Of a stretch of DNA of 64,000 bases, positions 2,266 through 51,455 are shown piece by piece. A program made the translations under genes and the position numbers. How positions within the stretch are numbered: position 1 is the first letter of the stretch; every line of letters begins with the position of its first letter. The stretch is taken from the NCBI GenBank assembly GCA_019429005.1, contig JAHYJR010000001.1:195232-259231 (forward strand), given 5' to 3'. The notes beneath the pieces were generated by a model that saw only the letters and a list, made by a program, of their open reading frames with translations, had not been told where the DNA came from and ran no database searches. Source of the stretch: Nanobdellati archaeon (GTDB lineage: Archaea; EX4484-52; GLR71).

Positions 2266-4140
2266 ATGGTATCTCACGATTATAAAAAACTAAATTTCAA
2301 ATGTGGTTTGGAATTTCATCAAGCTCTTGATACTGGAAAATTATTTTGTTCTTGTTCAAGTAAACTTTCTGAAGAATTGTTTGTTACTTCAGTTGAGCGT
2401 CGTCTTAGGCCTGTTGCTGGTGAAACAGGAAATGTGGATCCTGCAGTTCTTTTTGAATCCTTTAGGGACCGATCTTTTGTTTATAATATATATGCAGGTG
2501 AATCTTGTCTTGTTGAGTTGGATTGTGAACCTCCGCACCCCGTAAACGCATTGGCTTTCGATGTTTCACTTAAGATTGCTTTGATGCTTAATCTTGATAT
2601 ACCTCATGAAATATTTTTTATGCGTAAGACTGTTAATGATGGTTCAGCAACATCTGGATTTCAAAGAACTGCTTTAATAGGTACTGGTAATATGAATTCA
2701 ATAATAAAAAGTTCATTTGGTGATGTGCATATAGAAAATATGAGTCTTGAAGAGGATGCTTCAAAAATAGAAAAACGTGAAGGTGCTAAGGTTTATTATT
2801 CTTTAAGTCGTTTGGGTATACCTCTTGTTGAAATAGGTACTGCACCTGAGATAAAAACACCTGAACATGCTTTAGATATTGCAAAAATTATAGGTACTTT
2901 TTTGAGATCTTTTAATGAAATTAAACGTGGTATTGGGACTATACGTCAAGATGTGAATATCTCAATCGCTGGTGGTGAACGGATTGAAGTTAAAGGTTGG
3001 CAAGATTTAAATAAATTACCGCGTTTGATTGAGAATGAAGTTTCAAGACAAATTTTTTTAATTGAATTTAAGAATTATTTGGTCGAGAAAAACTTCACTG
3101 AACTAAAAACGAATTCAGTGTGTGATGTGACTGATATATTCAAGACTTCAAAATCTAAATTAGTATCTCGGATGTTATCTGGTGATTCTGTTGTTCTCTC
3201 TCTTAAACTTGAAAACTTCAGTGAACAATTAAAACGTGATGTCTGTGTTGGTAAGACTTTTGGTAAGGAATTAGCTGAGTATGCTATGGCTTATGGTGTT
3301 AAGGGTATGATCCACAGTGATGAAGATCTTTCAAAATATGGTCTTGAAACTGAATTCAAAACACTTTCAAAATATCTTGACGCGAAAAAGAATGATCTTG
3401 TTTTAATTATAATTGAATCTGAATCTGTTGCAAAAAAAGCGATAAATTCTGTAATAGATCGTATTAATTATTGTCTTGTTGGTGTTCCTAAAGAGACTAG
3501 GGTACCAAATCATGTGCTTGCAACGACTAGTTATGCAAGACCCTTACCTGGTTCAGATCGTATGTATCCTGAAACTGATGTCGCATCTATTGTTATTGAT
3601 TCAATTACACTTAACAAAATTTCAAAAATGCTTCCCGAAACTCTTGATGCTAAACGGCAGCGTTTTGAGGCTAATTTAGGTATTAATGTAGAATTAGTGA
3701 ATGCGTTAATATCTTCTAAATATTTGTATCTTTTTGACATTTTATCTTCAAAATATGCACCTGTTGCAAAAGAAATTGCAAACTGTTTTGTGAATACTCT
3801 TTTTGATTTAAAATCTCGTGAAAATCTTGATATTGCTTTATTGGATGATATCTTTTTTGATGAGCTTTTTAGTCTTTTGATAAAACAAAAAATTAAAAAA
3901 GCAATAATTCCTTATATCTTGTCTGAAAAGATAAAAACACCTAATAAAACCATTTTAGATATATTAAGTGGTGTCGAAACAGTCTCTGATGTGGAAGTAC
4001 TATCTGTAATCAAAAAGTTGATTTCAGAAAACAAAGATGTATCAAAAAATGCGATAATGGGTATGGTTATGGCTAAGCTTCGTGGCAAAGTTGATGGAAA
4101 AGTTGTTTCTGATTTGGTTTTGAAACAATTTCAAAACTAA
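2266..4140 (+). CDS. gatE: Glutamyl-tRNA(Gln) amidotransferase subunit E
   Basis: 624 aa. N-terminus MVSHDYKKLNFKCGLEFHQ..L.TG.KLFC.C is the characteristic GatE start; length matches. GatB/YqeY-like C-terminal region. Confidence 0.88.
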   Translation: MVSHDYKKLNFKCGLEFHQALDTGKLFCSCSSKLSEELFVTSVERRLRPVAGETGNVDPAVLFESFRDRSFVYNIYAGESCLVELDCEPPHPVNALAFDVSLKIALMLNLDIPHEIFFMRKTVNDGSATSGFQRTALIGTGNMNSIIKSSFGDVHIENMSLEEDASKIEKREGAKVYYSLSRLGIPLVEIGTAPEIKTPEHALDIAKIIGTFLRSFNEIKRGIGTIRQDVNISIAGGERIEVKGWQDLNKLPRLIENEVSRQIFLIEFKNYLVEKNFTELKTNSVCDVTDIFKTSKSKLVSRMLSGDSVVLSLKLENFSEQLKRDVCVGKTFGKELAEYAMAYGVKGMIHSDEDLSKYGLETEFKTLSKYLDAKKNDLVLIIIESESVAKKAINSVIDRINYCLVGVPKETRVPNHVLATTSYARPLPGSDRMYPETDVASIVIDSITLNKISKMLPETLDAKRQRFEANLGINVELVNALISSKYLYLFDILSSKYAPVAKEIANCFVNTLFDLKSRENLDIALLDDIFFDELFSLLIKQKIKKAIIPYILSEKIKTPNKTILDILSGVETVSDVEVLSVIKKLISENKDVSKNAIMGMVMAKLRGKVDGKVVSDLVLKQFQN

Positions 4141-4200
4141 TTTAATTTTATATTGATATTTTTTAAAATAAGAACTATACTATAAAAAGGATAATTTAAC

Positions 4201-5373
4201 TTAGAAATTTAAACAGTTAAATTCTGTTTTCAAATCTTTTATTTTTTGATTTAATACTGTGTCTGTTATGTCTTGACTGTACTTGATTATTTCCGTAATC
4301 TTTTTATTGAATTCTTTAATAATCTGGGTTATTGGATGTTCTGCATATGTTTCTGTTTTGGTTGTTTTTGGTTCTAAATATGTGGGTTTTTGTGTTTCTT
4401 GTTCTTCTTCATCTTCGTTTGTATTTTTGATTGTATATAGTTCTTCGTCATCGATTCGGTTAGTACCTATTCTATGTGCATTTTGTGTATTTGATGTTTT
4501 TGGGTCCTTATAGTGTATTTTTGGATGTGTGTCTGTTGTTGTAGTATTTATGTCTGTTATATATTCTGTATTTATATTTGTTTCTGGATTTTTAATCGCA
4601 TTATATAGGTCTTCAGCATAAGTGTTTGTAAATTTATTTTTATATTTTGTAATTGTAGTTTTAAAATCTTTTACAGATCTGATTGTGTCATTAAAACGTT
4701 TTCGTCCAAGGTTTATATTACCCTCTCCGATTATATCATATAGGCTTTTTACAACCGTTTCATATTTTTCATAAAGTGTATTTGTTATGTTGTGTTTATT
4801 GTTTGCTTTTTGCACTATTGTTGCATCACCTTCTGCAATAAGTTTATTGAATTTTTTATCTATGTATGGGAGTATGTCTGCTTGTTGAGCATGTACTAAT
4901 TCGTGTGTTTTTACAGAGTCTTTATATTTTGTATCTGTTATTGAGGGGTCTAAGTATATTGAGATATGATCTGGTTTTATTTCAGTACCATTTAGTTTAT
5001 ATTTAATCTCTGTAAGACCTACTGTATTTGATGGCAATCTTGCAATTGTGTAATCTAATTCTGTAACGTCATATTTATGTTCTTTTGGTGTGTGTTTTAA
5101 TGTTTTTAGGTATCTTTCAGCTAAGTCAAATATATTATAATCTGGTTTGTTTGTTGTTGTATATTGTTTTAATATCTCTGTATTGTATTCGGGTTGTGTG
5201 TCTGTAATATATTTAGGTTGTATGTCTGTGATGTATTTTGGTTTTGTGTCTATTAAATATGGTGCTTGTTTGTTTGATATACCTAAATCTATTGTGTGTG
5301 TATCTGTTTTGTATTGTATTTGGGGAGCTACTATATATGCTGATTTCAAATCACTTAAATACATAAATAACAC
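4201..5373 (-). CDS. Thr/Asn/Lys-rich hypothetical protein with an HExxH-x19-E (gluzincin-like) motif; possible Zn metallopeptidase
   Basis: 390 aa. THELVHAQQ...(19 aa)...AEGDAT has the spacing of thermolysin-type zincins. Internal short repeats KYITDIQP/KYITDTQP. No recognisable signal peptide. Confidence 0.4.
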   Translation of the reverse strand: MLFMYLSDLKSAYIVAPQIQYKTDTHTIDLGISNKQAPYLIDTKPKYITDIQPKYITDTQPEYNTEILKQYTTTNKPDYNIFDLAERYLKTLKHTPKEHKYDVTELDYTIARLPSNTVGLTEIKYKLNGTEIKPDHISIYLDPSITDTKYKDSVKTHELVHAQQADILPYIDKKFNKLIAEGDATIVQKANNKHNITNTLYEKYETVVKSLYDIIGEGNINLGRKRFNDTIRSVKDFKTTITKYKNKFTNTYAEDLYNAIKNPETNINTEYITDINTTTTDTHPKIHYKDPKTSNTQNAHRIGTNRIDDEELYTIKNTNEDEEEQETQKPTYLEPKTTKTETYAEHPITQIIKEFNKKITEIIKYSQDITDTVLNQKIKDLKTEFNCLNF

Positions 5374-5570
5374 CTGATTTTTGTTAAAGTTAAAATTAGT
5401 TATATATATTTCATATTTATTTAATTTTATAAATATTTGTTAAATATTTGTGCTAACTCTCACAAAAATATGCTAGTTTTTAGGGTATTTTTTAACAGAT
5501 TAGCACGCTTGCTAACGTTTTATATCTAATACTGTATTTTTATTATTTTTTTGTCTGTTTTTTTATTTGT

Positions 5571-6623
5571 GTGAGACCAAACCTTTATTTAAACTGCGTT
5601 CTAAGATTATGTATGGTATTTAAGCATCTTGTCTTTTGGATTTCAGGAATTTTTGGAACTTCAAGGCCTGTGGTATACAAGGATGAGCTTGATGCTATTG
5701 TTGAAACTGTTGTGGGTGGGTTTTCAAAGATTAATTTACGTATTTCTCAAAGTGATAATGAACTTAGTCTTTTGAGACAATCTGTGCTTCAGACACAACA
5801 AATACCAATTAGTGTGAATCTTCCTCAATTAGATAGCCTTATTATGGGTTATTCTACGATTTCAGAACGTGTTCATGTTGTTGAGTCTAATAAAGATGTT
5901 ATTAGTAATAAATTATTTATTTTAGAATCGACGCTCTCGTCTCGTATTGATTCTATTGTGTCTCAAAAACTAGAATCTATGGGCTCTAGTACCATTTCCG
6001 GTTCTTTAACAACACCTCAAATACTTGAATCTTTGCGTGCTCTAGAATCTTCTGTAAATCATATTAAATCTGAGTTAGTTACACGTTCAACTGTTGAATC
6101 TAACAACGTTACAACACCTAACAACAACGTTACAACAGCAAATAACAATGTTACAACACCTAACAACAACGTTACAACACCTAATAACAACGTTACAACA
6201 CCTAATAACAATGTTACAACACCTAATAAGAACGTTACAACAGCAAATATGTCGTTTGATGATGATTTGACTGCACAAGACGATGTTTATGGGGGTTCCG
6301 TTGACTTTGGTCAGGGTGTACAAAACGTGTCTGGGCCAAAAGCTTTTGGTTTTAAACCTACTCGTACGGTTGTCACTTCGCGTAATATGAATAAAGTACT
6401 TGTTTCATCCTTAATACCTGTTTTTAATGAGCTTTTAAATGCTGAGAAATTTTTATCTTACTCTGAATTGTCTAAACGTCTAAATAAAAAAGAAGCAACG
6501 GCAAGAGCTTATGTTAATGCTTTGAAAACTTATGGTGTTTCTATTGATGAACAGACTGTTTCTAACGGGCGTAAGCTTGTAAGGCTTGCAAAGGATGTTG
6601 TGCGTAAATATCTTATTCCTTAA
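5571..6623 (+). CDS. Hypothetical repeat protein: coiled-coil N-region, 7 x NVTTPNNN tandem repeats, basic C-terminal domain
   Basis: 350-aa ORF, true start uncertain. Seven perfect or near-perfect 24-nt repeats at about 6102-6250. C-terminal 60 aa are helical and basic, possibly DNA-binding. Confidence 0.5.
   Translation: MRPNLYLNCVLRLCMVFKHLVFWISGIFGTSRPVVYKDELDAIVETVVGGFSKINLRISQSDNELSLLRQSVLQTQQIPISVNLPQLDSLIMGYSTISERVHVVESNKDVISNKLFILESTLSSRIDSIVSQKLESMGSSTISGSLTTPQILESLRALESSVNHIKSELVTRSTVESNNVTTPNNNVTTANNNVTTPNNNVTTPNNNVTTPNNNVTTPNKNVTTANMSFDDDLTAQDDVYGGSVDFGQGVQNVSGPKAFGFKPTRTVVTSRNMNKVLVSSLIPVFNELLNAEKFLSYSELSKRLNKKEATARAYVNALKTYGVSIDEQTVSNGRKLVRLAKDVVRKYLIP
6102..6250 (+). repeat. 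24-nt tandem repeat, 7 copies (aacaacgttacaacacctaat and variants) inside the coding region
   Basis: Seen directly in the sequence. Encodes (N)NVTTP/ANN repeats. Confidence 0.9.
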
Positions 6624-6642
6624 GATGTAATTCTTTATAGTT

Positions 6643-6775
6643 CCTGCTGTTATAACAGCAGGTTGTTATTCAATAACATTGTTATAACATTGTTATAACA
6701 CTATTTAATCAATATCTATAGTCTTATTTAATTATCTATACTGTTATAACACAGAATAACATTGTTATAACAGCT
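6643..6775. repeat. Array of GTTATAACA sites (5 exact plus 1 variant), beginning with a perfect 20-bp palindrome CCTGCTGTTATAACAGCAGG
   Basis: Seen directly in the sequence. The palindrome lies 20 bp after the stop of the repeat-protein gene; further copies fall within 130 bp. Confidence 0.6.
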
Positions 6776-8485
6776 ATAGAGACTACTGTTTTATATATCT
6801 TTCAACGTGTTTTTCATTAGTTAGGGGTTTATTAGTCACTGAAGCTTCATTGAACTTTTTTTTGAATTCACTGAAACTTCACTGCACTATAAAACTAAAA
6901 TATGTTTTTTGTGTGTGGGTGTTTTTATCGTTTTATAATCTTTTTGTTTTGCGTTTCCCTCTATTTCTATTGTTTTTTTCTGTTTTTTTGATCTGTTAGA
7001 ATCTTTGGGTTTGTGTATGTGTGTGTGTGTATGTGTTTGGATTTTGTTATTTGTGTTATTTTGGGTGGTGTCTATTAGTCTATGTTCTGTTATAATTTTC
7101 TACAAAAATAACCACTTTTTGTGAGGGTTAAACTTTTGTTTATTTATGTTGTTTGAATTTAGCTTTCTTATGGTCTTTATTGGCTCTTTTAGGTCTCCGT
7201 TTGTCTCGATTGTGGCATTTATTTTGTTTAACTCTATATTATTTAGTATTTCTTTGTCTTTTGCCCCCCCCCTTTAGTATTCTCATTTGATTTCGTTTAT
7301 TTTTCATTTAGATTTCAGGATCTTTTGTTTTCATTTTTTTTTGTCTATTTTTTTCAATTACTATCAATTTTCAGAATATTTGTTTTTATCTCTATTTTTG
7401 GCTTTTTTTTGTTATAACTCTCACATTTATATCTTATTTTATCCTAATTTGGGTTTATTTCCTGTTTTTATCTAATTTAAGCCTTTATCTGTAATCTAAA
7501 TCTATCTCTATTGTTGTATTTTCGTTGTGTTTAAGTCTTTTTAGAAAAAAATAGTTACTTTTGTTCCTTAGTTATCCTTTAGTCTGACACATCTTAACGT
7601 TTATCATGTATATCTTAGCGTTTAGTACTTTGTTTTTGTATTCCTGGTATCTGTCTCTTATTGTTCTGCGTTTCTATTATATCTCTTGAATTCTGCTCTA
7701 TATAGTACGTATTTTTTAATCGTATTATATTGCTATATTTACTGTATTTACTCTATATTGCTAGTGGTTTTTATGCTCTTTTTATTGTTTATTTTTGTAT
7801 CCTTATTTAATCTTGCTAGCACACTCTTTGGGGGTATATTTGTTTAACACAGATTTTTTATTTTACTATTTTTTTATTTTGCAGACTTTATTCACACATT
7901 TCACATTTTATTTAAATAGCTTCTGAATCTCTTTCAAATTAGACCTTAACTCTCACATTTAGTGGCTCATTTTATTTGTCTTTCTTTTTGAATTTGGGGT
8001 TTTTAAGTGTTTATTGTGCTGTTTTAACGCACTTTATACTATTTAGATTTTATTGTATTCTGCTGGTTTTTTAAAATGCTTTATATCTTTATAACACACC
8101 CGTTTTTAGGTTTTTTCCTTTCAAATGTGTATATGCCTACTGTTAAGCTCTATTTCTGTTAAATTAGATCTTGTCCTATTATATTTAGATTGTCTTATAG
8201 TTTCATAGTTTTGATATATCTTTTAAATACTACATATTATAAAACTCAATTTATACCAATAGACAAGCATATCTTTATATTGCTATATCACTAAATAAAT
8301 GGTTGTTTTATTGTCTATTGTGCTTAATAATACAGCTTATTTGGAGACAATAGCCCAAAATATGCAATCTTAGGCAAGAACTTAGTTATTTTGGCCTTTT
8401 CACGGCACAAAAATTCACAATTTTTTCATATTAGGTTTCTTTTAACTCTCTCTTTTTTTATTTTTTAAAATTCAGAACTTAGGCA

Positions 8486-8893
8486 CTAGGGTGTATCAGA
8501 TTCTGTATTATAGTTATATTTCTTTGCGCTAAACGCTTTTACTGCAAGCACTATGCTTTCAAAGAAACGTTCACATCTGTTTGATAGTTTATAATAATCA
8601 CGTTCTTTTGTTTCTATTAGACCTATGCCAATAAGTTTGTTTATCATGCTGTAATATGTTGTTTTGGATATATTGTGTTCCTTACAATATATATCCCAAT
8701 TGGACCTATCAAAAACACCATTATTACCTTTTTGTCTTAGTTCTTTTAGGAATGTATAGGCATGATCTGGCAGCATTACATTTTTTGAACCTCTATATAA
8801 CAGGCTCATAAGGCTTTCAAAATCAGGGGTTTCAAGCGGTTTTACAGATATTGTCGTGTGGTATCTTCTAGGTTTTTTTGTATCCATAATCAA
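8486..8893 (-). CDS. Small putative DNA-binding protein (winged-helix-like)
   Basis: 135 aa. The segment ISKTTYYSMINKLIGIGLIETKERDYYKLS resembles an HTH recognition helix plus wing. A TTAGGCACTA array lies upstream. Confidence 0.4.
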   Translation of the reverse strand: MIMDTKKPRRYHTTISVKPLETPDFESLMSLLYRGSKNVMLPDHAYTFLKELRQKGNNGVFDRSNWDIYCKEHNISKTTYYSMINKLIGIGLIETKERDYYKLSNRCERFFESIVLAVKAFSAKKYNYNTESDTP

Positions 8894-9223
8894 TCACATT
8901 GATTTTTTGTTTTTTCTTGTTTTTATGTATTCCTATATTATGTAGAATGGATTGGTTTTATTTTTGTCTAGAAAAAATACACCATTCTGATATGTATCTG
9001 AATACACAACACTCGTACAAAACCCCCTTGATTACTAGCCTAAACATGGCAAAAATAGCGAAGCTAGTATGTTTAGTTTAGTTATATTAGAATAATGTAG
9101 TGTTACTAAGGTATATACAAATAAAAGTATAATGATATAGTAAGATATTTTATATCTTATATATTAGACTATCTAAATACATATATATCTATATTACAAT
9201 GTATATACTGTACAATGTATAAG

Positions 9224-9391
9224 TTAGGCACCAATATTGTTTTTGTTAGGCACTAAAAAGTAGGGTTGTTAGGCACTATTTTTGTTTTTTTAGGTTATAA
9301 AATTCATTTAGATAATACGTATTTTTGTATGCTATCTGTAATTTAATGTGTATTGTTTATGTATGTTTGAATAATATGTAGTTAGGCACTA
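9224..9391. promoter_or_regulatory. Cluster of four TTAGGCACTA/TTAGGCACCA sites (9224, 9246, 9269, 9382) between two wHTH genes
   Basis: Exact 10-mer repeats spaced 22-23 bp. Further copies at 8479 and 16266. An exact 10-mer is expected about 0.1 times in this window by chance. Confidence 0.45.
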
Positions 9392-9472
9392 GACAGGTTC
9401 TTATTTAGCCCTTTTAATCAAAATTTAAGAAAAAACAGACTTTTTAGGCTAAAAATAAACAAAAAAACGATA

Positions 9473-9757
9473 TCACTTAAGCTTTTTCATCACTTTTTCA
9501 AAATCTTTAGCATATTCAGAACCTTTTTCAGTCAGTTTTATGTATTTTATACGACCTACTTTTTCAAAAGAAACAATACCTTTTTTCATGAAAAGCTCAA
9601 GTATCTTTACTGTATGTGAATATGTGCAATCTGTTATTTTTGCAAGTGTTGATGCATATACACTTTCATTCTTAATACGTAATGCTAATAGTATTTGAAC
9701 GGGTTTTGCGTGTAAAAAGAGATCACATAATTCTTCATTTTCTTTAACCATATTCAA
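9473..9757 (-). CDS. Winged-helix transcriptional regulator (ArsR/TrmB-like fold)
   Basis: 94 aa. YASTLAKITDCTYSHTVKILELFMKKGIV...GRIKYIKLTEKG is a typical HTH plus wing. Confidence 0.55.
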   Translation of the reverse strand: MNMVKENEELCDLFLHAKPVQILLALRIKNESVYASTLAKITDCTYSHTVKILELFMKKGIVSFEKVGRIKYIKLTEKGSEYAKDFEKVMKKLK

Positions 9758-9867
9758 ACCACCATTAGATAATTGTTAGTATTCTTACTATAAATATCTT
9801 TTTGATTTGATGTATATATACCTGCTGTTAAATATATATTGTTGTACAGTTGTTCGGCAATTGACTT

Positions 9868-10308
9868 TTAATCAATATAATGCGAATCCAATTCCTTTGT
9901 TTTAACATTTGGTAGTTGGAATGGTGGTGGAAGATTAATCTGTGTTGCATTTATAAGTGCTGTTACAGATGCTTTTGCAAGAATGTTATTAAGTATAGGG
10001 ATTATTATTTTTTTATCGATTTTTTTATCTGTTGTCCAGGTTTTAATAATATCTTCTGTTCCTTTTTCATATATAACACGTCCTCTTATTTTAATACCTG
10101 CAATTTCGCTATCATCTAATATATATGTTGTTATATGTTCAAAAAAGACAATAGCATTATATTCATTTATTGTGCTTTTAGAATTAGTATCTTTCTTTAT
10201 AATTGGTTTGACATCAACAATATTAGCATGACTATTAATTTTTATGTTGCCTTTGATATCTCTTTTTTTCCCACAATTTATGCTATCTATGAATGTTTTT
10301 AGGATCAT
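9868..10308 (-). CDS. Hypothetical protein
   Basis: 146 aa, no recognised motifs. Start overlaps the stop of the upstream 60-aa ORF (ATGA), which suggests translational coupling. Confidence 0.4.
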   Translation of the reverse strand: MILKTFIDSINCGKKRDIKGNIKINSHANIVDVKPIIKKDTNSKSTINEYNAIVFFEHITTYILDDSEIAGIKIRGRVIYEKGTEDIIKTWTTDKKIDKKIIIPILNNILAKASVTALINATQINLPPPFQLPNVKTKELDSHYID

Positions 10309-10487
10309 TGTGTATCTACCTTTGATTTTTTATTTTTTTCAATCTCTTGAACAACCTTTGCCATATCAAAGCTGCCACGTTTTCCAAGGTATCTAATGAC
10401 TTTCTGTTTGGATGTTTTGTTTTCCCACGTGTTCTCTACAAGATACCAATACTCATGACCTTTTATAATTTTTTTTCTAATAAACAT
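10305..10487 (-). pseudogene. 60-aa ORF resembling the N-terminal motif of IS1634/IS4-family transposases (possible remnant)
   Basis: KGHEYWYLVENTWENKTSKQKVIRYLGKRG recalls the K-G-x-x-Y-x-Y-L-V-E-S-x-R-x-x-G-K-x-x-Q-x-x-x-x-Y-L-G signature at IS1634 transposase N-termini. Recognised from memory, not searched. Confidence 0.25.
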
Positions 10488-10536
10488 TGGGGGTCTATAT
10501 CTCCAATATACTTTATATTTTAGATTATTGCCTATT

Positions 10537-10764
10537 TTAGATAATTGCGTGGTATTTCAGTATGACAAATGCGATATATATTATCAATGTGAACATAAAC
10601 ACAAGTTCAATAATTTCTGAAATATTAAGTTCATTTAGACTTTTTTGAATCTTATTTTGCGTTTTTTCAACTTTTTTAACACTTTTGATTATTTCTACAG
10701 CCTTTGGCTTAGTTGTTTTTACAACGTTATTTTTTGTAGTTTTTGCAGTTTTTTTAACAGCCAT
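10537..10764 (-). CDS. Small Lys-rich protein with C-terminal transmembrane helix
   Basis: 75 aa. Basic N-terminal half (KKTAKTTKNNVVKTTKPK), then a hydrophobic C-terminal helix. Confidence 0.35.
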   Translation of the reverse strand: MAVKKTAKTTKNNVVKTTKPKAVEIIKSVKKVEKTQNKIQKSLNELNISEIIELVFMFTLIIYIAFVILKYHAII

Positions 10765-10868
10765 GTAAACACCAATTCTATTTAGATTTTATCTGTATTT
10801 AAGTTTATCTCTATTATTGTTTTTTAGAAAAAAAGGATTATGGAACTATTAAACTAAAAATAGTTCCT

Positions 10869-11537
10869 TTATTTTTTAAGTGATTCTTTTATCATACTAA
10901 TTAATGTTTTATCTAGTTTTTGAGGTTTACCAAGTACAGAACCATATATTTTGTCAAGTTCTTTATATTTTTCATCACAAATGTCTATAATTGTGGTAAG
11001 TGTTTCAACATAAGTCTTTAACGTTCTCCCATTATGTTTGTTATTTATATTTTTTTGAAATTCTGTTGTGTTTGCGAGTATACCCATAAGCATATTTTTT
11101 GCAATGAATTTACGTGATTCTAAAAGGTATACGGTTTTATCAACGTATTCATCAATATTTTTTATAACAACATCTTTATCTTCATAATGCTCGTTTAGAG
11201 TTTCTACAACGTGTGTTTTTATGTTATTTACTGAATCATATATTTGATCTAAAGTCCATAATGTTTTATATTTGTTAGATTCTTGTTTTCCTGTCGCATT
11301 TAAACAACTATAATCAATTACACTATCACTCGCATCAAGACCTTCCTTTTGATATGCTTTTGCGACATTATTACTATATGTAGAACTTTCTTGTGGTCTA
11401 TTATCAAGATATGTTTCAACACTTTTATCAGTAATTTTTTTGATGGCTCGCTCTTTATGCCCTTCAATGTAACCAACTGACATTAATACTGCTGAAACAA
11501 CTGTCAATATAGAGATAGTTAATGTAATAATTTCCAT
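10869..11537 (-). CDS. Hypothetical membrane-anchored protein
   Basis: 222 aa. N-terminal TM helix (ITLTISILTVVSAVLMSVGYI); remainder hydrophilic, no motifs recognised. Confidence 0.45.
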   Translation of the reverse strand: MEIITLTISILTVVSAVLMSVGYIEGHKERAIKKITDKSVETYLDNRPQESSTYSNNVAKAYQKEGLDASDSVIDYSCLNATGKQESNKYKTLWTLDQIYDSVNNIKTHVVETLNEHYEDKDVVIKNIDEYVDKTVYLLESRKFIAKNMLMGILANTTEFQKNINNKHNGRTLKTYVETLTTIIDICDEKYKELDKIYGSVLGKPQKLDKTLISMIKESLKK

Positions 11538-11640
11538 TTAATCCACAGTATAAAATTAGTATTTAGTAGTTTATATATTTTATAGGTGATTTGAACTTGA
11601 AATATCATATATTTATCTTTAAATCTTTTAGAAAAAGGAA

Positions 11641-29642: not shown

Positions 29643-29818
29643 AGAAAAATATTGTATTGTTTAGTATATATATTTTATTATAGTTTATCTAAAAGAATTC
29701 ATCAGGTGCGGTTTAATCTTATATACTTTTAATGTTAAATAATTTACATCAGTATTAGTTAAATATTTAAATCATAAGCGTACATTAATTTTATATTAAT
29801 AAATCGGTGTTTTATTTT

Positions 29819-30592
29819 ATGGGTCGTGTAATCTGTCTTGTATCGGGTAAAGGTGGTGTTGGAAAAACTACACTTGCGTCCAATATAGCTATGGCATTAA
29901 ATAATTTTGGAAAAAATACAGTTGTCATTGATACAAACCTTACAACACCAAATTTAGGTTTTCATCTTGGTGTACCACTTTATCCTAAAACCTTTCATGA
30001 TGTTTTGAATGGTACAGCTACTTATGAAGAAGCAACTTATACACATCCTTCAGGTCTTAGAGTTATGCCTGCTGGAATATCTTTAAGAGATCTTAAAAAT
30101 ACAAATTTATCACAGATGGATAACGTTGTTCTCGATATTGCAGATAACCATGACATTGTAATTCTTGACGGTGCTGCAGGTCTTGGAAAAGAAGGTAAGG
30201 CGAGTTTAAGTGCAGCAGATGAAGCTCTTATTGTAACAAATCCACAGCTTCCATCAGTTACAGATGCTCTTAAGACAATAAAAATCGCAGAAGAGCTTGG
30301 TACAAAAATACTTGGTGTGGCTTTAAATCGTTCAAAAAATCATCCTTCCGAATTATCACAAAATGAAGTTGAAGCACTTTTAGGTTATCCGGTTATTTCA
30401 ATTATACCTGATGAGAATCATATTATAGACAGTCTTGCAGCAAAGACGCCTATTGTGGCATTCAAACCAAACACACGTTCAGCTCAAGAGATAAAGAAAC
30501 TCGCTGCATGTTTAATCGGTATTGATTATGACATCCCTGTTCAGAAAGAATATGGATTGTTTTCTAGAATTTTTGGTTTTCTTAAAGGTTAA
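29819..30592 (+). CDS. minD: MinD/ParA-family ATPase (archaeal MinD homologue)
   Basis: Deviant Walker A VSGKGGVGKTT. About 257 aa from the second Met; the ORF could also start at 29807. Confidence 0.85.
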   Translation: MGRVICLVSGKGGVGKTTLASNIAMALNNFGKNTVVIDTNLTTPNLGFHLGVPLYPKTFHDVLNGTATYEEATYTHPSGLRVMPAGISLRDLKNTNLSQMDNVVLDIADNHDIVILDGAAGLGKEGKASLSAADEALIVTNPQLPSVTDALKTIKIAEELGTKILGVALNRSKNHPSELSQNEVEALLGYPVISIIPDENHIIDSLAAKTPIVAFKPNTRSAQEIKKLAACLIGIDYDIPVQKEYGLFSRIFGFLKG

Positions 30593-46976: not shown

Positions 46977-48506
46977 ATGTCAGTAAAGAAAAAAGACAAT
47001 AAATTTCAAGAACAGTTTATATCATTCTTACAACAGAAAGGTTTTATCTGGGGTCCTGAACCTGAATTATATGGGGGTCTTGCAGGTTTCTATACATATG
47101 CACCACTTGGAAAACGTCTGAAAAATAATGTTGAAAATCGTATTCGTTCAGTCTTCCAAAAAAATGATATGTGGGAAGTTGAATGTCCGACAATTATGCA
47201 GAAAGAGGTTTGGCAAGCATCAGGACATTTAGATAATTTTACAGATCCTTTGGTTGCTTGTTCAAAATGTAATGCTTCATTTCGTGCTGATAAACTTATA
47301 GAAGAGAAATACGATGACGTTGTTGCAGATGCATTTAGCGAAAAAGAACTTCTTGATTTTATAAATGATAAAAAAATAAAATGTCCTGTTTGTGGTTCTC
47401 AATTTATTCAAGAGATTAAGCAACATAATCTGATGATGAAAACCACAATCGGCACAAAAATTGAAGCATATAACCGACCAGAAACTGCTACAACAACATA
47501 TCTTCCATTTATTCGTTATGTAGATTATTTTAGGAAAAAAATACCCTTTGGTGTTTTCCAGATCGGAAAAGCTTATCGAAACGAGATTTCACCAAGACAG
47601 CATGTGCTTCGGATGCGCGAATTTACGCAAGCTGAAGGTCAGATGTTTATCTTTAAAGAGCAGAAAAATAATTTTGAAAGGTATGATTTAATTAAAGAGT
47701 CAAAATTACCTCTTTGGTCACACCAATTACAAGACACTTCGAAAGAACCTAAAATGATATCAGTTTCAGATGCAATGAAAAAAGGTTATCTAAAGAATCA
47801 GGCATATGCATGGTCTGTTAATTTAGCATATACACTTTTTAGAGAAATCGGAATTCCTGAAGAATATATAAGGCTTCGTCAGCATACGCCTGGAGAGTTA
47901 GCATTTTATGCAGATGATGCATGGGATCTTGAGATTAAGACAAACAGTTTTGGTTGGGTTGAATGTTGTGGTATTCATGATAGAACTGATTATGATTTAA
48001 CTCAACATGCAAAAGCATCAGGTAAAAAGTTAGAAGCTTTAGATGAGAATAATGAAAAGACAGTTCCAAATATTCTTGAGATTGCTTTTGGAACAGACCG
48101 ACCTGTATTTGCTCTTCTTGATATAACATATAATCAAGCAGAGGATCGGACTGTATTATTTGTACCTTATAATCTTGCACCAATACAAGTTGCAGTATTA
48201 CCACTTGTAAAGAGAGATGGTCTTGACACAATTGCAAAAGAGTTGTTCAATAAATTGAACGGTAAATTCATTGCATATTATGATGAGGGTGGTTCTGTTG
48301 GTCGGCGTTATGCAAGGATGGATGAGAAAGGTACTCCTTATATAATTACAACAGATACTGATACACTTACAGATAATAGTGTCACAATTCGTGATCGTAA
48401 TTCAACAAAGCAAATAAGAATCCAGCTTGAAGATGTGCCTGATGTTCTTGATAATTTGTTTTCTAGTAAGAAACAATTTGAAGATTTAGGTAAAATTATA
48501 GAGTGA
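46977..48506 (+). CDS. glyS: Glycine--tRNA ligase (archaeal/eukaryotic alpha2 type)
   Basis: 509 aa. N-terminal YGGLAGFYTYAPLG (GlyRS motif 1), class II core, C-terminal anticodon-binding domain. Confidence 0.88.
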   Translation: MSVKKKDNKFQEQFISFLQQKGFIWGPEPELYGGLAGFYTYAPLGKRLKNNVENRIRSVFQKNDMWEVECPTIMQKEVWQASGHLDNFTDPLVACSKCNASFRADKLIEEKYDDVVADAFSEKELLDFINDKKIKCPVCGSQFIQEIKQHNLMMKTTIGTKIEAYNRPETATTTYLPFIRYVDYFRKKIPFGVFQIGKAYRNEISPRQHVLRMREFTQAEGQMFIFKEQKNNFERYDLIKESKLPLWSHQLQDTSKEPKMISVSDAMKKGYLKNQAYAWSVNLAYTLFREIGIPEEYIRLRQHTPGELAFYADDAWDLEIKTNSFGWVECCGIHDRTDYDLTQHAKASGKKLEALDENNEKTVPNILEIAFGTDRPVFALLDITYNQAEDRTVLFVPYNLAPIQVAVLPLVKRDGLDTIAKELFNKLNGKFIAYYDEGGSVGRRYARMDEKGTPYIITTDTDTLTDNSVTIRDRNSTKQIRIQLEDVPDVLDNLFSSKKQFEDLGKIIE

Positions 48507-48510
48507 ATTT

Positions 48511-48932
48511 ATGCAATCAATACGTTTAAGATATCAAGAAGTTGAAGATGCAGAACGTTTTTTGAGATTATAACTAAATAAGATTTCAAATATCAAATTA
48601 TACCTGTAAAGACTGTTGAAGATGAGATTGATTTTTTAAAGCTTAATGATGAAAAGCGAAAAAATAATTTTGAATATAATTATTCAATAATGTATGACGA
48701 TATTCTTGTAGGTAGTTGCGGTATTAAGATTGATCAACATAATACTCATATTTGTAGTTTAGGTTTTTTTGTTGACGAAAACTATTGGGGTAAAGGTATT
48801 GCAACATATGTTGTACCTCTACTTGAGCATATTTGTTTTGAAGAGTTGGGCATTAAACGAATTGAAATAAGGATGTATGTTGAAAATAAAGTAAGTGAGA
48901 AAGTTGCAATAAAGTGTGGTTATACGCAATAA
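48511..48932 (+). pseudogene. GNAT-family N-acetyltransferase, frameshifted in a T6 run
   Basis: ORF 48511-48573 (MQSIRLRYQEVEDAERFLRL*) continues in the +2 frame from about 48582 (..VKTVEDEIDFLKL...GKGIAT...) to 48932. GNAT acetyl-CoA motif NYWGKGIATYVV in the second part. Shift point near cgttttttgag at 48556-48566. Confidence 0.5.
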
Positions 48933-49123
48933 TGTGTGATGAAAAAAGCAATAAAACTTGGAAATGAGTTTGTTGATGCTTATCTTTATGCTAAGGTTAA
49001 GGTGTGATTATATCTAATTTTTGAAGATGTTTTTATTCCGTTTCTCTGTTTTTGTTATACTTGATTGTTTCATACACCTATTTTTTTAAAATCTTAAGTG
49101 ACTATTTTACGAAAAATATATAT

Positions 49124-49462
<339 letters not shown>

Positions 49463-49501
49463 ATCGTTATAAAAAAATGTAAAATATCTTTAGTTGATTG
49501 T

Positions 49502-50350
49502 ATGAAACAAAACATTAATAATCATCTCAGTATAATGACAATTTTATTAAGAAAATGTAATTTATATTGTGATCATTGTTCTTCTAATTCTTCGTTTAAA
49601 CGTGAAGGTTTTGTTAATACTGATGATATTTTAAACATATTGGAAGCTTTTGCGCCATATGCCAAGAAAAAACAGCATCTTGTTAGTGGAGGGGAACCAA
49701 CATTACATCCAGATTTACATTATGTATTATCTGCTTCAAACGATTTGGGTTATAAGACATCAGTTGTGACTAATGCGTCTTGGATTGATCTTGATGATAT
49801 GGGTAAGACTGAAAGATTTTTTTATGACACTTTTCCTGAAGATTTAAAGATAACATCATCTTTTGATCTGGAGCATTTCAAGGAAGATCCAATGCTTCTC
49901 CAAAGATTATCTGTTTTACATGATTTAACACATAATCGCAATAAAATTACTATTGATGGTGCATATAATGGCGTTAACGGTATAAAGAAAATACAGTCTT
50001 ATTTAGACGAAACTACATTTGATTATATGTTGATTCCTATGCAGAGTATGGGGCGGGCAACAAATTTAGTAAATCAGAATATTTTAGATAATAATAAATT
50101 ATCTTGTCCTAAAGGTGATAAGAAAGGGTTTGTTATCACTGATGATGGTGTATATTATTGCTTAAGGACTGCTCTTACTTCAAATCCTTGTTTTAAACTT
50201 TCAGATAGTTATGATGTGGAAGAAATATTACATGCTTTGGATTGTTTCAATTCATCTTCAATAAACAGTTCAATCGTATCATTATATGATAATTTATCGC
50301 CTCAAGAGATTATTGATAATTATCATTATCCTTGTGATTTATGCGAATAG
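49502..50350 (+). CDS. Radical SAM protein with C-terminal Cys-rich region (possible SPASM/twitch auxiliary cluster)
   Basis: 282 aa from MKQNINNH.... CNLYCDHC equals CxxxCxxC at residues 19-26; GGEP motif; C-terminal cysteines C..(CPKGD)...YYC......C and terminal CDLC. Confidence 0.72.
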   Translation: MKQNINNHLSIMTILLRKCNLYCDHCSSNSSFKREGFVNTDDILNILEAFAPYAKKKQHLVSGGEPTLHPDLHYVLSASNDLGYKTSVVTNASWIDLDDMGKTERFFYDTFPEDLKITSSFDLEHFKEDPMLLQRLSVLHDLTHNRNKITIDGAYNGVNGIKKIQSYLDETTFDYMLIPMQSMGRATNLVNQNILDNNKLSCPKGDKKGFVITDDGVYYCLRTALTSNPCFKLSDSYDVEEILHALDCFNSSSINSSIVSLYDNLSPQEIIDNYHYPCDLCE

Positions 50351-50704
50351 GATTAACTAACTAAATTTTATAGCCATACCCTGTTATTTTTTAAATAATT
50401 TTTATATTATAACTGTGAGTGTCCCTATCTAGACAATCTATATATTTATGTAACCATAAACGGTTATTATGTTTAAAAAATAATACCAAAATAGTTTAAG
50501 TTTATTTTTGATTGTTGCTTTTATCATAGGTATGTTATAATAAAAAACCTAAATTATTCTGTTTCCTTGTTTATGATAATCTTTTTTACATTGGTAGGTC
50601 TCATTTTTGCTTTAAATTCAAAGAACTTAACCCAATAAAATATAGGTCTTTTTTAGACTCTATCCAAATAGTCTATCTCTCTCTATTTAGCACTAAATAA
50701 TATT

Positions 50705-50902
50705 ATGCTCAAAAAACAATCTCAAATCGGTTTAAGTCTATTTTTAATAGGTATCGGTGCGTTGATTATTGGTTATGATCTACTAAAAAACCTAAATAGT
50801 TCTGTTTCTTTGTTTATAGCATCAATCTTTGTATTAATCGGTATCGCTTTATTCTTAAATTCTAAAAAACCGTTAAGGCTTCAAACAAAAATCAAGGTTT
50901 GA
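50705..50902 (+). CDS. Small 2-TM membrane protein
   Basis: 65 aa, two hydrophobic helices. A truncated paralogous copy lies upstream at about 50531-50646. Confidence 0.4.
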   Translation: MLKKQSQIGLSLFLIGIGALIIGYDLLKNLNSSVSLFIASIFVLIGIALFLNSKKPLRLQTKIKV

Positions 50903-51455
50903 TCCTTTCAATCCTATAATATGTTGCATCGCCTTCTTCATCAACAACAGCAAGAAGTGCTCTTGCACGTATGTTTTGGCTAAGTCTAACATATCGAGAC
51001 CATTCTTGATATGAACTTGTATAGTTCTCAGGTACTGCATGGACATTAAATTTTGTATGTTCTTTAAGGTCTTTTGAACCGCCTTTATACGGATTAACAC
51101 CTCTATCATAAACTCTAAAATGTGTTCCAAATTTAAATCCCGATTTAACTATATAACCACGATTTCTAAGGTCTCTATAGACAATATATTTATGTGCAAA
51201 CTCTTTGTCTATTTTACATGCAATCGAATAAAATGTCTTTATATCAATTTCTTTTTTAGCTTTCATTAAGACCATATGTTCTCTTTCAAGAAGAATCATG
51301 GTCTCTTCGAGACTAAGAAGGAGGTATTTTATTTTTTCTTCTTCAATAATTTTACCGAAATATTTTTCCTGGAATATAGGATTCCATTCTTTTTCATTCC
51401 ATATAACTACTTTGTTTTCAAGAAGTTCTGCAGTGACTATTGTGTTTTCAACCAT
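50892..51455 (-). CDS. endA: tRNA-splicing endonuclease
   Basis: 187 aa. Catalytic region YRDLRNRGYIVKSGFKFGTHFRVY and ..ALLAVVDEEGD match the EndA catalytic domain. Confidence 0.88.
   Translation of the reverse strand: MVENTIVTAELLENKVVIWNEKEWNPIFQEKYFGKIIEEEKIKYLLLSLEETMILLEREHMVLMKAKKEIDIKTFYSIACKIDKEFAHKYIVYRDLRNRGYIVKSGFKFGTHFRVYDRGVNPYKGGSKDLKEHTKFNVHAVPENYTSSYQEWSRYVRLSQNIRARALLAVVDEEGDATYYRIERIKP

Follow-up and report, generated by a model that had tools for sequence, protein, structure and literature searches.

The window analysed here (the whole 64,000-nucleotide stretch of contig JAHYJR010000001.1, with positions counted from its first letter) is part of a DPANN archaeal chromosome of ~30 % GC, and carries just downstream of the gene at 5613-6623 a cluster of short palindromes that raises a simple question: what is such a cluster for? 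The initial annotation read it as an iteron-like array, i.e. an operator for a dimeric DNA-binding protein or an element of a replication origin. We found that the downstream cluster is one half of a conserved array of putative protein-binding sites, which also runs into the gene 5613-6623 itself, and the pattern of sequence conservation makes it very probable that the sites are selected for protein binding. The gene encodes a coiled-coil protein with a C-terminal winged helix-turn-helix (wHTH) domain. That array and protein together mark a terminus-type landmark of the chromosome, the binder being the gene's own product, is a statement which, taken whole, we regard as evenly balanced.

The array and its candidate binding protein

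The array begins 20 nt 3' of the stop of the gene (stop codon at 6621-6623), and its first site past that codon, CCTGCTGTTATAACAGCAGG (6643-6662), equals its own reverse complement, i.e. it is a perfect 20-bp palindrome, as initially described; a consensus scan classed it as a terminator-like hairpin. The exact 8-mer core GTTATAAC was found at 6649, 6681, 6692, 6743 and 6764, and the exact 10-mer TGTTATAACA at 6648, 6680, 6691, 6742 and 6763, the intervals of 32, 11, 51 and 21 bp being helically phased. Behind the palindrome lies a block at 6664-6700, composed of the split variant TGTTATTCAATAACA (6664-6678) and of two overlapping TGTTATAACATTGTTATAACA units with an 11-bp period (6680-6700); Tandem Repeats Finder reported 2.5 copies of the 11-bp unit ATAACATTGTT at 6673-6700. 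Two copies of the 13-bp palindrome ATAACATTGTTAT fall in this block and a third at 6756. The array closes at 6742-6772 with two more TGTTATAACA sites (6742 and 6763), separated by AATAACATTGTT. The four further exact cores, the single split variant and the tandem units of the initial annotation were all recovered. The basic element is a TGTT/AACA pair in alternating orientation, which yields both (C)TGTT-RY-AACA(G) and TAACA-W-TGTT in an 11-bp cycle.

All five copies of the 10-mer in the 64 kb scanned fall in 6648-6772. The shorter core occurs seven times in the window, against 1.6 expected, and none of 100 shuffles reached seven; under a Markov model trained on the local T-rich/AT-rich DNA, ~0.005 cores are expected per 133 bp, and the maximum over 3000 simulations was one. 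The early worry that an AT-rich motif could be equally dense elsewhere by chance is not borne out in the window, where AT-richness does not explain the clustering.

The array also proved larger than initially described, with seven more sites of the same family in the upstream gene. At 6101-6249 (plus strand), Tandem Repeats Finder and the site map delineated 7.1 copies of the 21-bp unit TAACAACGTTACAACACCTAA, which encodes NNVTT(P/A)N, and this repeat holds seven GTTACAAC sites at an exact 21-bp phase. These sites have the form (C/T)GTTACAACA, preceded by TAACAA(C/T), and belong to the same motif family as the downstream ones. Compared with synonymous-codon shuffles, the motif is in excess in the window (7 vs 2.2, p = 0.001); among the related loci described below, none of 2000 shuffles reached the observed 8-mer count in L002 and L009, and p was below 0.01 for the 10-mer in L010 and L011. 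Across 25 linker units drawn from 8 genes, AAC encodes the first Asn in 25 of 25 cases (background 0.22-0.72), and GTT encodes Val in 25 of 25 (background 0.18-0.48). Units reading N-N-V (AAC AAT GTT) alternate with units reading N-I-V (AAC ATT GTT), the two being each other's reverse complement, and the residue following Val is T, A, I or V, roughly the outcome of GTT-RYA, with ACC, ATC and GCC codons occurring too. The in-gene site intervals are 21 bp or multiples thereof in several lineages, 21 being the smallest multiple of three near an integral number of helical turns. In the alignment of 12 homologues, the NNVTT repeat was kept across the family and the remaining linker was not. The motif excess over synonymous shuffles, the frozen AAC and GTT codons, the reverse-complementary units, the residue choice after Val and the 21-bp spacing show that the constraint acts on the DNA, so that the 'NNVTT' peptide repeat is largely the translation of a DNA site. 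The 'repeat protein' feature and the 'iteron-like array' are therefore one cis-element.

The homologous gene and its flanks were retrieved from 12 other loci (identified by L numbers where needed), covering ~7 lineages, with protein identities of 29-45 % and DNA of 30-50 % GC. The motif (C)TGTTRYAACA(G)/TAACAWTGTT was present in these 12 loci both just 3' of the homologous gene and in its linker-coding region. In every locus the (C)TGTTRYAACA(G) sites start 13-64 nt past the stop codon, often fused to TAACAWTGTT. For ten loci (L001-L003 and L006-L012), 68 of the 70 TGTTRYAACA sites lay between the start of the homologous gene and a point 2.8 kb beyond its end; adding the window brings the count in this interval to 75 of 78 sites over a total of 195 kb, i.e. 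a 100-fold enrichment. L133 and L134 showed the same site pattern, as judged by eye. Five CTGTTRYAACA sites in the gene and three past its stop were counted in the most divergent member, whose DNA has ~50 % GC, and in some relatives the sites recur as modules of 127-260 bp through the gap that follows the gene. Position being conserved in ~7 lineages whose proteins are 29-45 % identical, the initial proposal that the GTTATAACA cluster is a site array for a DNA-binding protein appears sound.

The gene 5613-6623 (plus strand) encodes a protein of 336 residues when counted from NCBI's ATG (the reading frame opens at a GTG at 5571), 100 % identical to P0001, a 'hypothetical protein, DPANN group archaeon' from a metagenome-assembled genome. 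The alignment of 12 homologues and an AlphaFold (AF2) model delineated four parts: a conserved hydrophobic N-terminal helix, MVFVWLVNKIAGIF, a coiled coil of ~140 residues, a disordered linker of ~85 residues with the NNVTT repeats, and a C-terminal winged helix. In the model, helices span residues 2-13 and 23-165, disorder 166-251 and the wHTH 259-334 (pLDDT ~90). Foldseek matched the C-terminal domain to wHTH domains of the MarR/ArsR/Lrs14 type, and a PDB profile search of the protein returned coiled coils and Lrp-type HTH only. Pfam, NCBIfam and PHROGs contained no family for this protein, and these searches together with the PDB profile search detected no ATPase, helicase, primase or Rep domain. 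An exhaustive phmmer search against 1.84 billion cluster representatives yielded 15 relatives only, all with the domain at the C-terminus and 135-351 residues in length (the shortest seemingly truncated), and a protein-pattern scan of the JGI metagenome collection found no further members; the family is tiny and uncharacterised.

The wHTH is the sole well-conserved part of the family. Its recognition-helix region (KEATARAYVN.LR) and the core of the sites are both conserved, the recognition helix and the site variant being too conserved for covariation between them to show. The coiled-coil/wHTH gene is the sole DNA-binding gene adjacent to the array in all loci. Because it combines a confident wHTH with this constant adjacency, its product is the best candidate for the binder, and we find it reasonably likely that the array is bound by the product of the adjacent gene. 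The initial annotation had proposed either the basic C-terminal domain of the repeat protein or the nearby wHTH proteins; of these we favour the first, and the second, encoded at 8486-8893 and 9473-9757, are not consistently linked to the array.

A candidate terminus-type landmark and rival explanations

In the relatives, the locus follows a recurrent order: four or five GTGCCTAA repeats, the coiled-coil/wHTH gene with its in-gene sites, the post-stop array, a T-rich gap, two direct TAACTCTCACATT copies, a gene for a XerA-like tyrosine recombinase on the minus strand, a canonical dif site, one or two TGTTRYAACA sites (~150 bp upstream of xerA) and four TTAGGCAC repeats. The predicted dif, GTGTCGCATAA-N6-TTATGCGAC, has an 11-6-11 layout with TAA-N6-TTA and lies ~70 bp upstream of the XerA-like gene in 8 fetched loci (L001/L005, L003, L006-L008, L011 and L012; ~3 lineages). 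Its predicted clade form, (A/G)TGTCGCATAA-N6-TTATGCGAC(A/G)(C/T), which strongly resembles bacterial dif, was located at L001 11153-11180, L003 11280, L006 4054, L007 6063, L008 3844, L011 11354 and L012 11608. In five loci, three of which are close relatives, a TGTTRYAACA site stands exactly 86 bp from the dif start. A dif within the array of the window was considered and rejected: the nearest candidate, found by eye, has a 5-bp spacer and not the 11-6-11 layout, and a scan with 6-8-bp spacers found none in the array. In L001 (9044 and 9269) and L003 (9046, 9279 and 9504), a dif-arm-like TTATG(C/T)GTCA occurs 2-4 nt after the TGTTGTAACAG site of each gap module and is reminiscent of Bacillus XerD-binding half-sites (XDS); being confined to the L001/L003 lineage, it was not retained as a general feature.

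In the window as in all relatives, the genes on both sides run towards the locus, and about three quarters of the window open reading frames (ORFs) to the right of the locus are on the minus strand, as counted from the ORF list. The Spt5-L11-L1-L10 genes lie on the left and on the plus strand in L001, L003 and L010-L012, and on the right and on the minus strand in the window, pointing at the locus in each case; this switch of side would be the outcome of inversions symmetric about a replication landmark. Because of the converging genes and of dif, we read the landmark as terminus-type, and that it is such rather than an origin is likely. A large intergenic region between convergent genes, as at the dif-surrounding boundary of Thermococcus kodakarensis, is also present: it measures 1.86 kb in the window (6624-8485, between a plus-strand and a minus-strand gene) and, wherever a relative's contig reaches far enough, 0.75-1.6 kb after the homologous gene. 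As regards fork traps, we saw no polarity that would hold from block to block, the sites being palindromes or mixed in orientation; it is from the setting of the locus that we infer a terminus. The locus does not match a ParB/parS-type centromere: no ParB domain was detected, 23 kb separate it from the closest ParA/MinD-like gene (29807-30592), and the site is a palindrome of 10-12 bp and not a 16-bp parS. Nor does it resemble a mobile replicon or an integrated element, its flanks being chromosomal housekeeping genes (GatD/E, AlaRS, ribosomal proteins). An element integrated at the tRNA-Gln gene was rejected in view of the conserved synteny, no direct or att-like tRNA repeat and no phage or plasmid family (PHROGs) having been detected.

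Several observations weigh against this interpretation. A number of the related loci are close relatives, hence the count of ~7 independent lineages. When the JGI metagenome collection was searched for three spaced TGTTRYAACA sites, more than 120 loci came up, and the family is encoded by none of them; most are plain tandem repeats and a few are genuine irregular clusters. The palindrome is thus used by unrelated systems, and the motif is not diagnostic of this protein. It is their co-occurrence that links protein and sites, the spacing of 5-7 bp between half-sites is unusually short for a wHTH dimer, and the helical phasing seen in the window fails in the relatives (27 and 38 bp). The window itself has no XerA by tblastn and no match to the clade dif consensus in all 64 kb, nor any TAA-N6-TTA dif in 4140-11640; the role of the array does not need an adjacent dif. 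L009 shares this arrangement, with gene, array and gap kept and neither xerA nor dif nearby, whereas L006, which shares the gene order of the window (GatE ... gene ... gap ... 94-aa wHTH ... ATP-cone ... AlaRS), has xerA and dif at the place of the window's gene for a 135-aa wHTH protein. Finally, GC skew in the window tracks gene strand and cannot separate an origin from a terminus, which made a call on that basis uninformative.

Among the other explanations, a plain transcriptional operator without any chromosome-level role survives best, although we consider it unlikely. The array would then serve autorepression by a roadblock in or after the gene, protection from convergent antisense transcription, or the control of xerA in relatives. 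Palindromic sites and a MarR/ArsR-type wHTH suit such a function, as does the TATA-like TTTTATATATC (6791) after the array, and the relatives' sites upstream of xerA are compatible with a secondary regulatory role. Tus and RTP are likewise autoregulated via a site at their own gene (PMC10331603). However, the gene's own upstream region (5374-5612) contains zero sites, whereas at least 12 sites spread over 0.7 kb in and past the gene, far above what an operator needs; the site modules of 127-260 bp extend through the gap in relatives, and a long coiled coil with a tethered wHTH is atypical of a simple repressor.

A replication origin with iterons, the second possibility raised by the initial annotation, found little footing at this locus and is improbable. 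It would require the coiled-coil/wHTH protein to be a non-Orc initiator with sites partly in its own gene and the T-rich gap to be an unwinding region. The array does adjoin a long AT/T-rich gene-free stretch, and sites in the linker-coding region of the putative binder recall lambda O. Clusters of origin recognition boxes (ORBs) lie inside a coding gene at the Pyrococcus oriC (PMC1904270). Same-palindrome arrays were also met in two metagenome contigs of 33-35 % GC, L052 (7060-7240) and L104 (2480-2665), where CTGTTATAGCAG/CTGTTATAACAG arrays flank an AT-rich stretch beside a gene for a T7-gp4-like primase-helicase; these are probably phage replication origins with this palindrome as iterons. 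The iteron-origin idea is thus probably right for the phage-like setting but does not fit the window locus. There, the 21-bp direct repeat lies in a coding region and the downstream sites are palindromes, beside a T-rich gap. Genes, including Spt5-L11-L1-L10, converge in all genomes, the opposite of known origins, and most relatives (nine fetched loci, several of them closely related to one another) carry xerA with a canonical dif here. Pfam scans of the ~40 window ORFs and the gene tables within 8 kb of 7 related loci yielded no Orc1/Cdc6 or AAA+ initiator, and ATPase, helicase and Rep domains are absent from the protein. ORB and mini-ORB repeats have an invariant TTCC...GAA core (PMC1904270); no TTCC..GAA mini-ORBs were found, the motif of the array being TGTTRYAACA.

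It is hardly probable that array and protein act together as a synaptic or topological filter on XerA recombination at dif, in the manner of the ArgR/PepA sites of cer and psi. The fixed 86-bp distance from dif in five loci, with the main array on the other side of xerA, would agree with such Xer accessory sequences, and Cortez et al. proposed a partner binding the repeats that flank archaeal dif (PMC2958812). Yet the window and L009 keep gene, array and gap with neither xerA nor dif nearby, and 1.3-2.5 kb separate dif from the main array, a distance much beyond that of known accessory sequences.

An RNA-level element, the palindromes being 3' untranslated region hairpins or the terminator of the upstream gene, is very improbable. 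The 20-bp palindrome followed by TTGTTATT was flagged as terminator-like, and the 150 nt past the stop codon of the window fold with z = -5.8; the equivalent 150 nt in six relatives, however, gave z of -0.7 to -3.2 with unrelated structures, the common variants TGTTGTAACA and TGTTACAACA are not self-complementary, and the motif is conserved in the coding region too, with no Rfam match. A hairpin function was rejected, as the structure is not conserved in relatives and fits the 20-bp palindrome of the window only. A functionless product of chance or slippage in AT-rich DNA, to which the ~30 % GC genome, the 11-bp and 21-bp tandem repeats of array and gene and the many plain tandem repeats among the metagenome matches would lend themselves, is effectively refuted by the local expectation of 0.005, by the frozen synonymous positions and by the recurrence of the same motif in the same place in ~7 lineages, including one of ~50 % GC.

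The gene-free gap and other features around the locus

The remainder of the intergenic stretch, a spacer at 6773-8485, is 51 % T on the plus strand, with 31 T-runs of at least 5 vs 3 A-runs and no ORF of at least 100 aa. In the window (taken as 6780-8485), L001, L003, L006, L011 and L012, T made up ~50 % of the gap when read on the strand of the upstream gene, and 19-31 such T-runs stood against 0-3 A-runs. A T-rich gap of this kind would stop archaeal transcription one way only. No helical periodicity of the gap T-tracts was detected, there being no peak over shuffles. Rfam scans returned tRNAs only at gathering thresholds and noise at permissive ones, with no match in the gap, and a non-coding RNA there was not retained. 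Near its left end, just past the good archaeal TATA-like box TTTTATATATC (6791, 3' of the array), four copies of TTCAYTGMA with 10/21/11-bp spacing occupy 6836-6888 and include the palindrome TGAAGCTTCA followed by a T7 run; they bear a superficial likeness to mini-ORBs, without the TTCC core, and could be a small RNA or another operator.

Comparison of the gaps uncovered a conserved 13-mer, AACTCTCACATTT, present in the window on the plus strand at 7416-7428 and 7948-7960, with degenerate copies at 8444-8456 and 5455-5467; TAACTCTCACAT recurs without mismatch in the gap of each of the 7 loci compared. In nearly every related locus the gap holds 2-3 direct copies of the exact 13-mer TAACTCTCACATT, always on the same strand (e.g. 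L001 9796/10218 and L006 2285/2789/3122), the last of them adjoining the 3' end of xerA. In several lineages TGTGAG and a T-run come after the first copy, and an inverted copy is also found in L006. This 13-mer is better conserved than the palindromes.

The position held by xerA in most relatives is occupied in the window by the small wHTH gene at 8486-8893 (minus strand, 135 aa, weak TrmB match), which has a 63 % identical homologue at the same position in L009. Past it comes a gap of 0.58 kb with four TTAGGCAC(Y)A repeats on the plus strand (9224, 9246, 9269 and 9382, i.e. 9224-9389, plus one at 8479), upstream of this minus-strand gene, and then the second small wHTH gene at 9473-9757. In relatives, TTAGGCAC(Y)A arrays bracket the locus in inverted orientation, with 4-5 copies 5' of the coiled-coil/wHTH gene and 4 copies 5' of xerA; each array is upstream of an inward-pointing gene, and the window retains the right-hand bracket only. 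They are probably the operator set of a second regulator. In L009, a TGTTRYAACA site occurs at +15 after each TTAGGCAC(Y)A copy.

The wider flanks of the window encode GatD, an HD protein, GatE, AlaRS, Spt5-L11-L1-L10, FtsZ, LeuRS, topoisomerase VI and MCM. Between gatE and the array gene, a 390-aa ORF (4201-5373, minus strand) with Thr/Lys/Asp/Tyr-rich repeats (KYITD, TDT) had no family match, and its coding strand is C-rich, unlike all other window genes. The stretch of lowest GC in the window (48000-51000, 0.23-0.25) coincides with a sign change of the GC skew; it surrounds a radical-SAM gene (49052-50350) and adjoins two tRNAs and a tRNA-splicing endonuclease gene.

Proposed role and relation to known systems

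In the mechanism that we propose, the coiled coil would form a dimer or higher oligomer, so that two or more wHTH domains on disordered tethers of ~85 residues could bind TGTT/AACA half-sites in varied arrangements; because the tethers are long and disordered, the domains could occupy half-sites that are variously arranged. A dense nucleoprotein block of at least 0.7 kb, starting inside the protein's own gene, would then coat or bridge the array. Such a block may mark or organise the dif/terminus landmark by insulation, by tethering (perhaps via the conserved N-terminal helix) or as a roadblock. We rank such a role at the dif/terminus region (organising, insulating, tethering or roadblock) first, and autoregulation, as a by-product, second. 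The binding protein, its oligomeric state, the terminus identity and the physiological role are all matters that we infer. It is possible, and we put it forward tentatively, that this is a dedicated terminus DNA-organising system of a small DPANN clade, whose protein coats an array beside dif that is partly written in its own linker codons, and tethers, insulates or blocks forks or SMC at the chromosome terminus.

A close archaeal parallel is found in Thermococcus kodakarensis, where dif lies in an intergenic region of ~1.9 kb between convergent genes and where a protein-dependent chromosomal/SMC boundary is formed; it needs neither XerA nor dif, its function being carried by the surrounding sequence and by TrmBL2, a nucleoid protein of the wHTH family (PMC11840125). 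Both loci share a large gene-free region, convergent genes, an association with dif and a DNA-binding protein of the wHTH type. The binder there is an abundant nucleoid protein, with neither a discrete palindromic array nor a linked gene, whereas the locus described here combines a discrete motif array with a dedicated local coiled-coil/wHTH gene, and its copy in the window has no dif.

With the RTP/Ter system of Bacillus and the Tus/Ter system of E. coli, the locus shares a DNA-binding protein gene beside its own (here putative) site, and RTP is a winged-helix dimer. Ter sites, however, are few, polar, opposed and dispersed over the terminus, whereas the present sites are (quasi)palindromic and clustered in 1-3 kb, and Tus and RTP show no homology to the protein beyond a generic wHTH. 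The 8-mer GTTGTAAC, which we take to be the conserved core of the E. coli Ter sites bound by Tus, is contained in the relatives' TGTTGTAACA and, as its reverse complement, in the in-gene sites of the window; this match is probably a coincidence. The string GTTGTAACTA appears in PMC4499146. The tus and rtp genes each adjoin a site of their own product within the terminus region (PMC10331603). A likeness to MatP/matS of E. coli lies in the short palindromic site, in a DNA-binding domain joined to a coiled coil able to bridge DNA and in the association with the terminus; matS sites are single ones over ~800 kb and MatP is a ribbon-helix-helix protein, whereas here there is one dense local array.

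The ParB/parS, Noc/NBS and RacA/ram systems resemble the locus by palindromic sites at a chromosomal landmark and by an oligomerising or tethering protein, and the first Bacillus parS lies within the spo0J (parB) gene. Noc has an N-terminal membrane helix; the family described here has the conserved hydrophobic helix MVFVWLVNKIAGIF at its N-terminus, for which membrane or partner binding would be a conjecture. It differs from these systems in lacking a ParB fold, a CTPase and a neighbouring ParA, and its landmark is dif-proximal and not origin-proximal. In phage lambda, the binding sites of O lie within the part of its gene that codes for the inter-domain linker. O and ori-lambda thus offer a likeness in that a peptide repeat is the by-product of a DNA repeat, with an AT-rich stretch nearby; the lambda iterons, however, are 19-bp units in a replicon origin, whereas the present locus has convergent genes, dif and xerA (in relatives) and no replication genes.

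In the literature searched, we found no sequence-specific terminus protein for archaea or DPANN. How replication ends, dimers are resolved and chromosomes segregate in archaea, and especially in DPANN, is largely unexplained, and here a short, well-defined motif, one particular candidate protein and, in relatives, a predicted dif/XerA pair are brought together within a few kilobases. The dual coding of the array, in which selection on DNA as a putative binding site would account for the 'peptide repeat' NNVTT of a disordered linker, further calls for caution in annotating low-complexity repeats as protein features. If the proposed role is true, archaea would have in this system a functional equivalent of MatP/matS, of RTP/Ter or of the TrmBL2 boundary, one that pairs a discrete cis-element with a dedicated, locally encoded protein.

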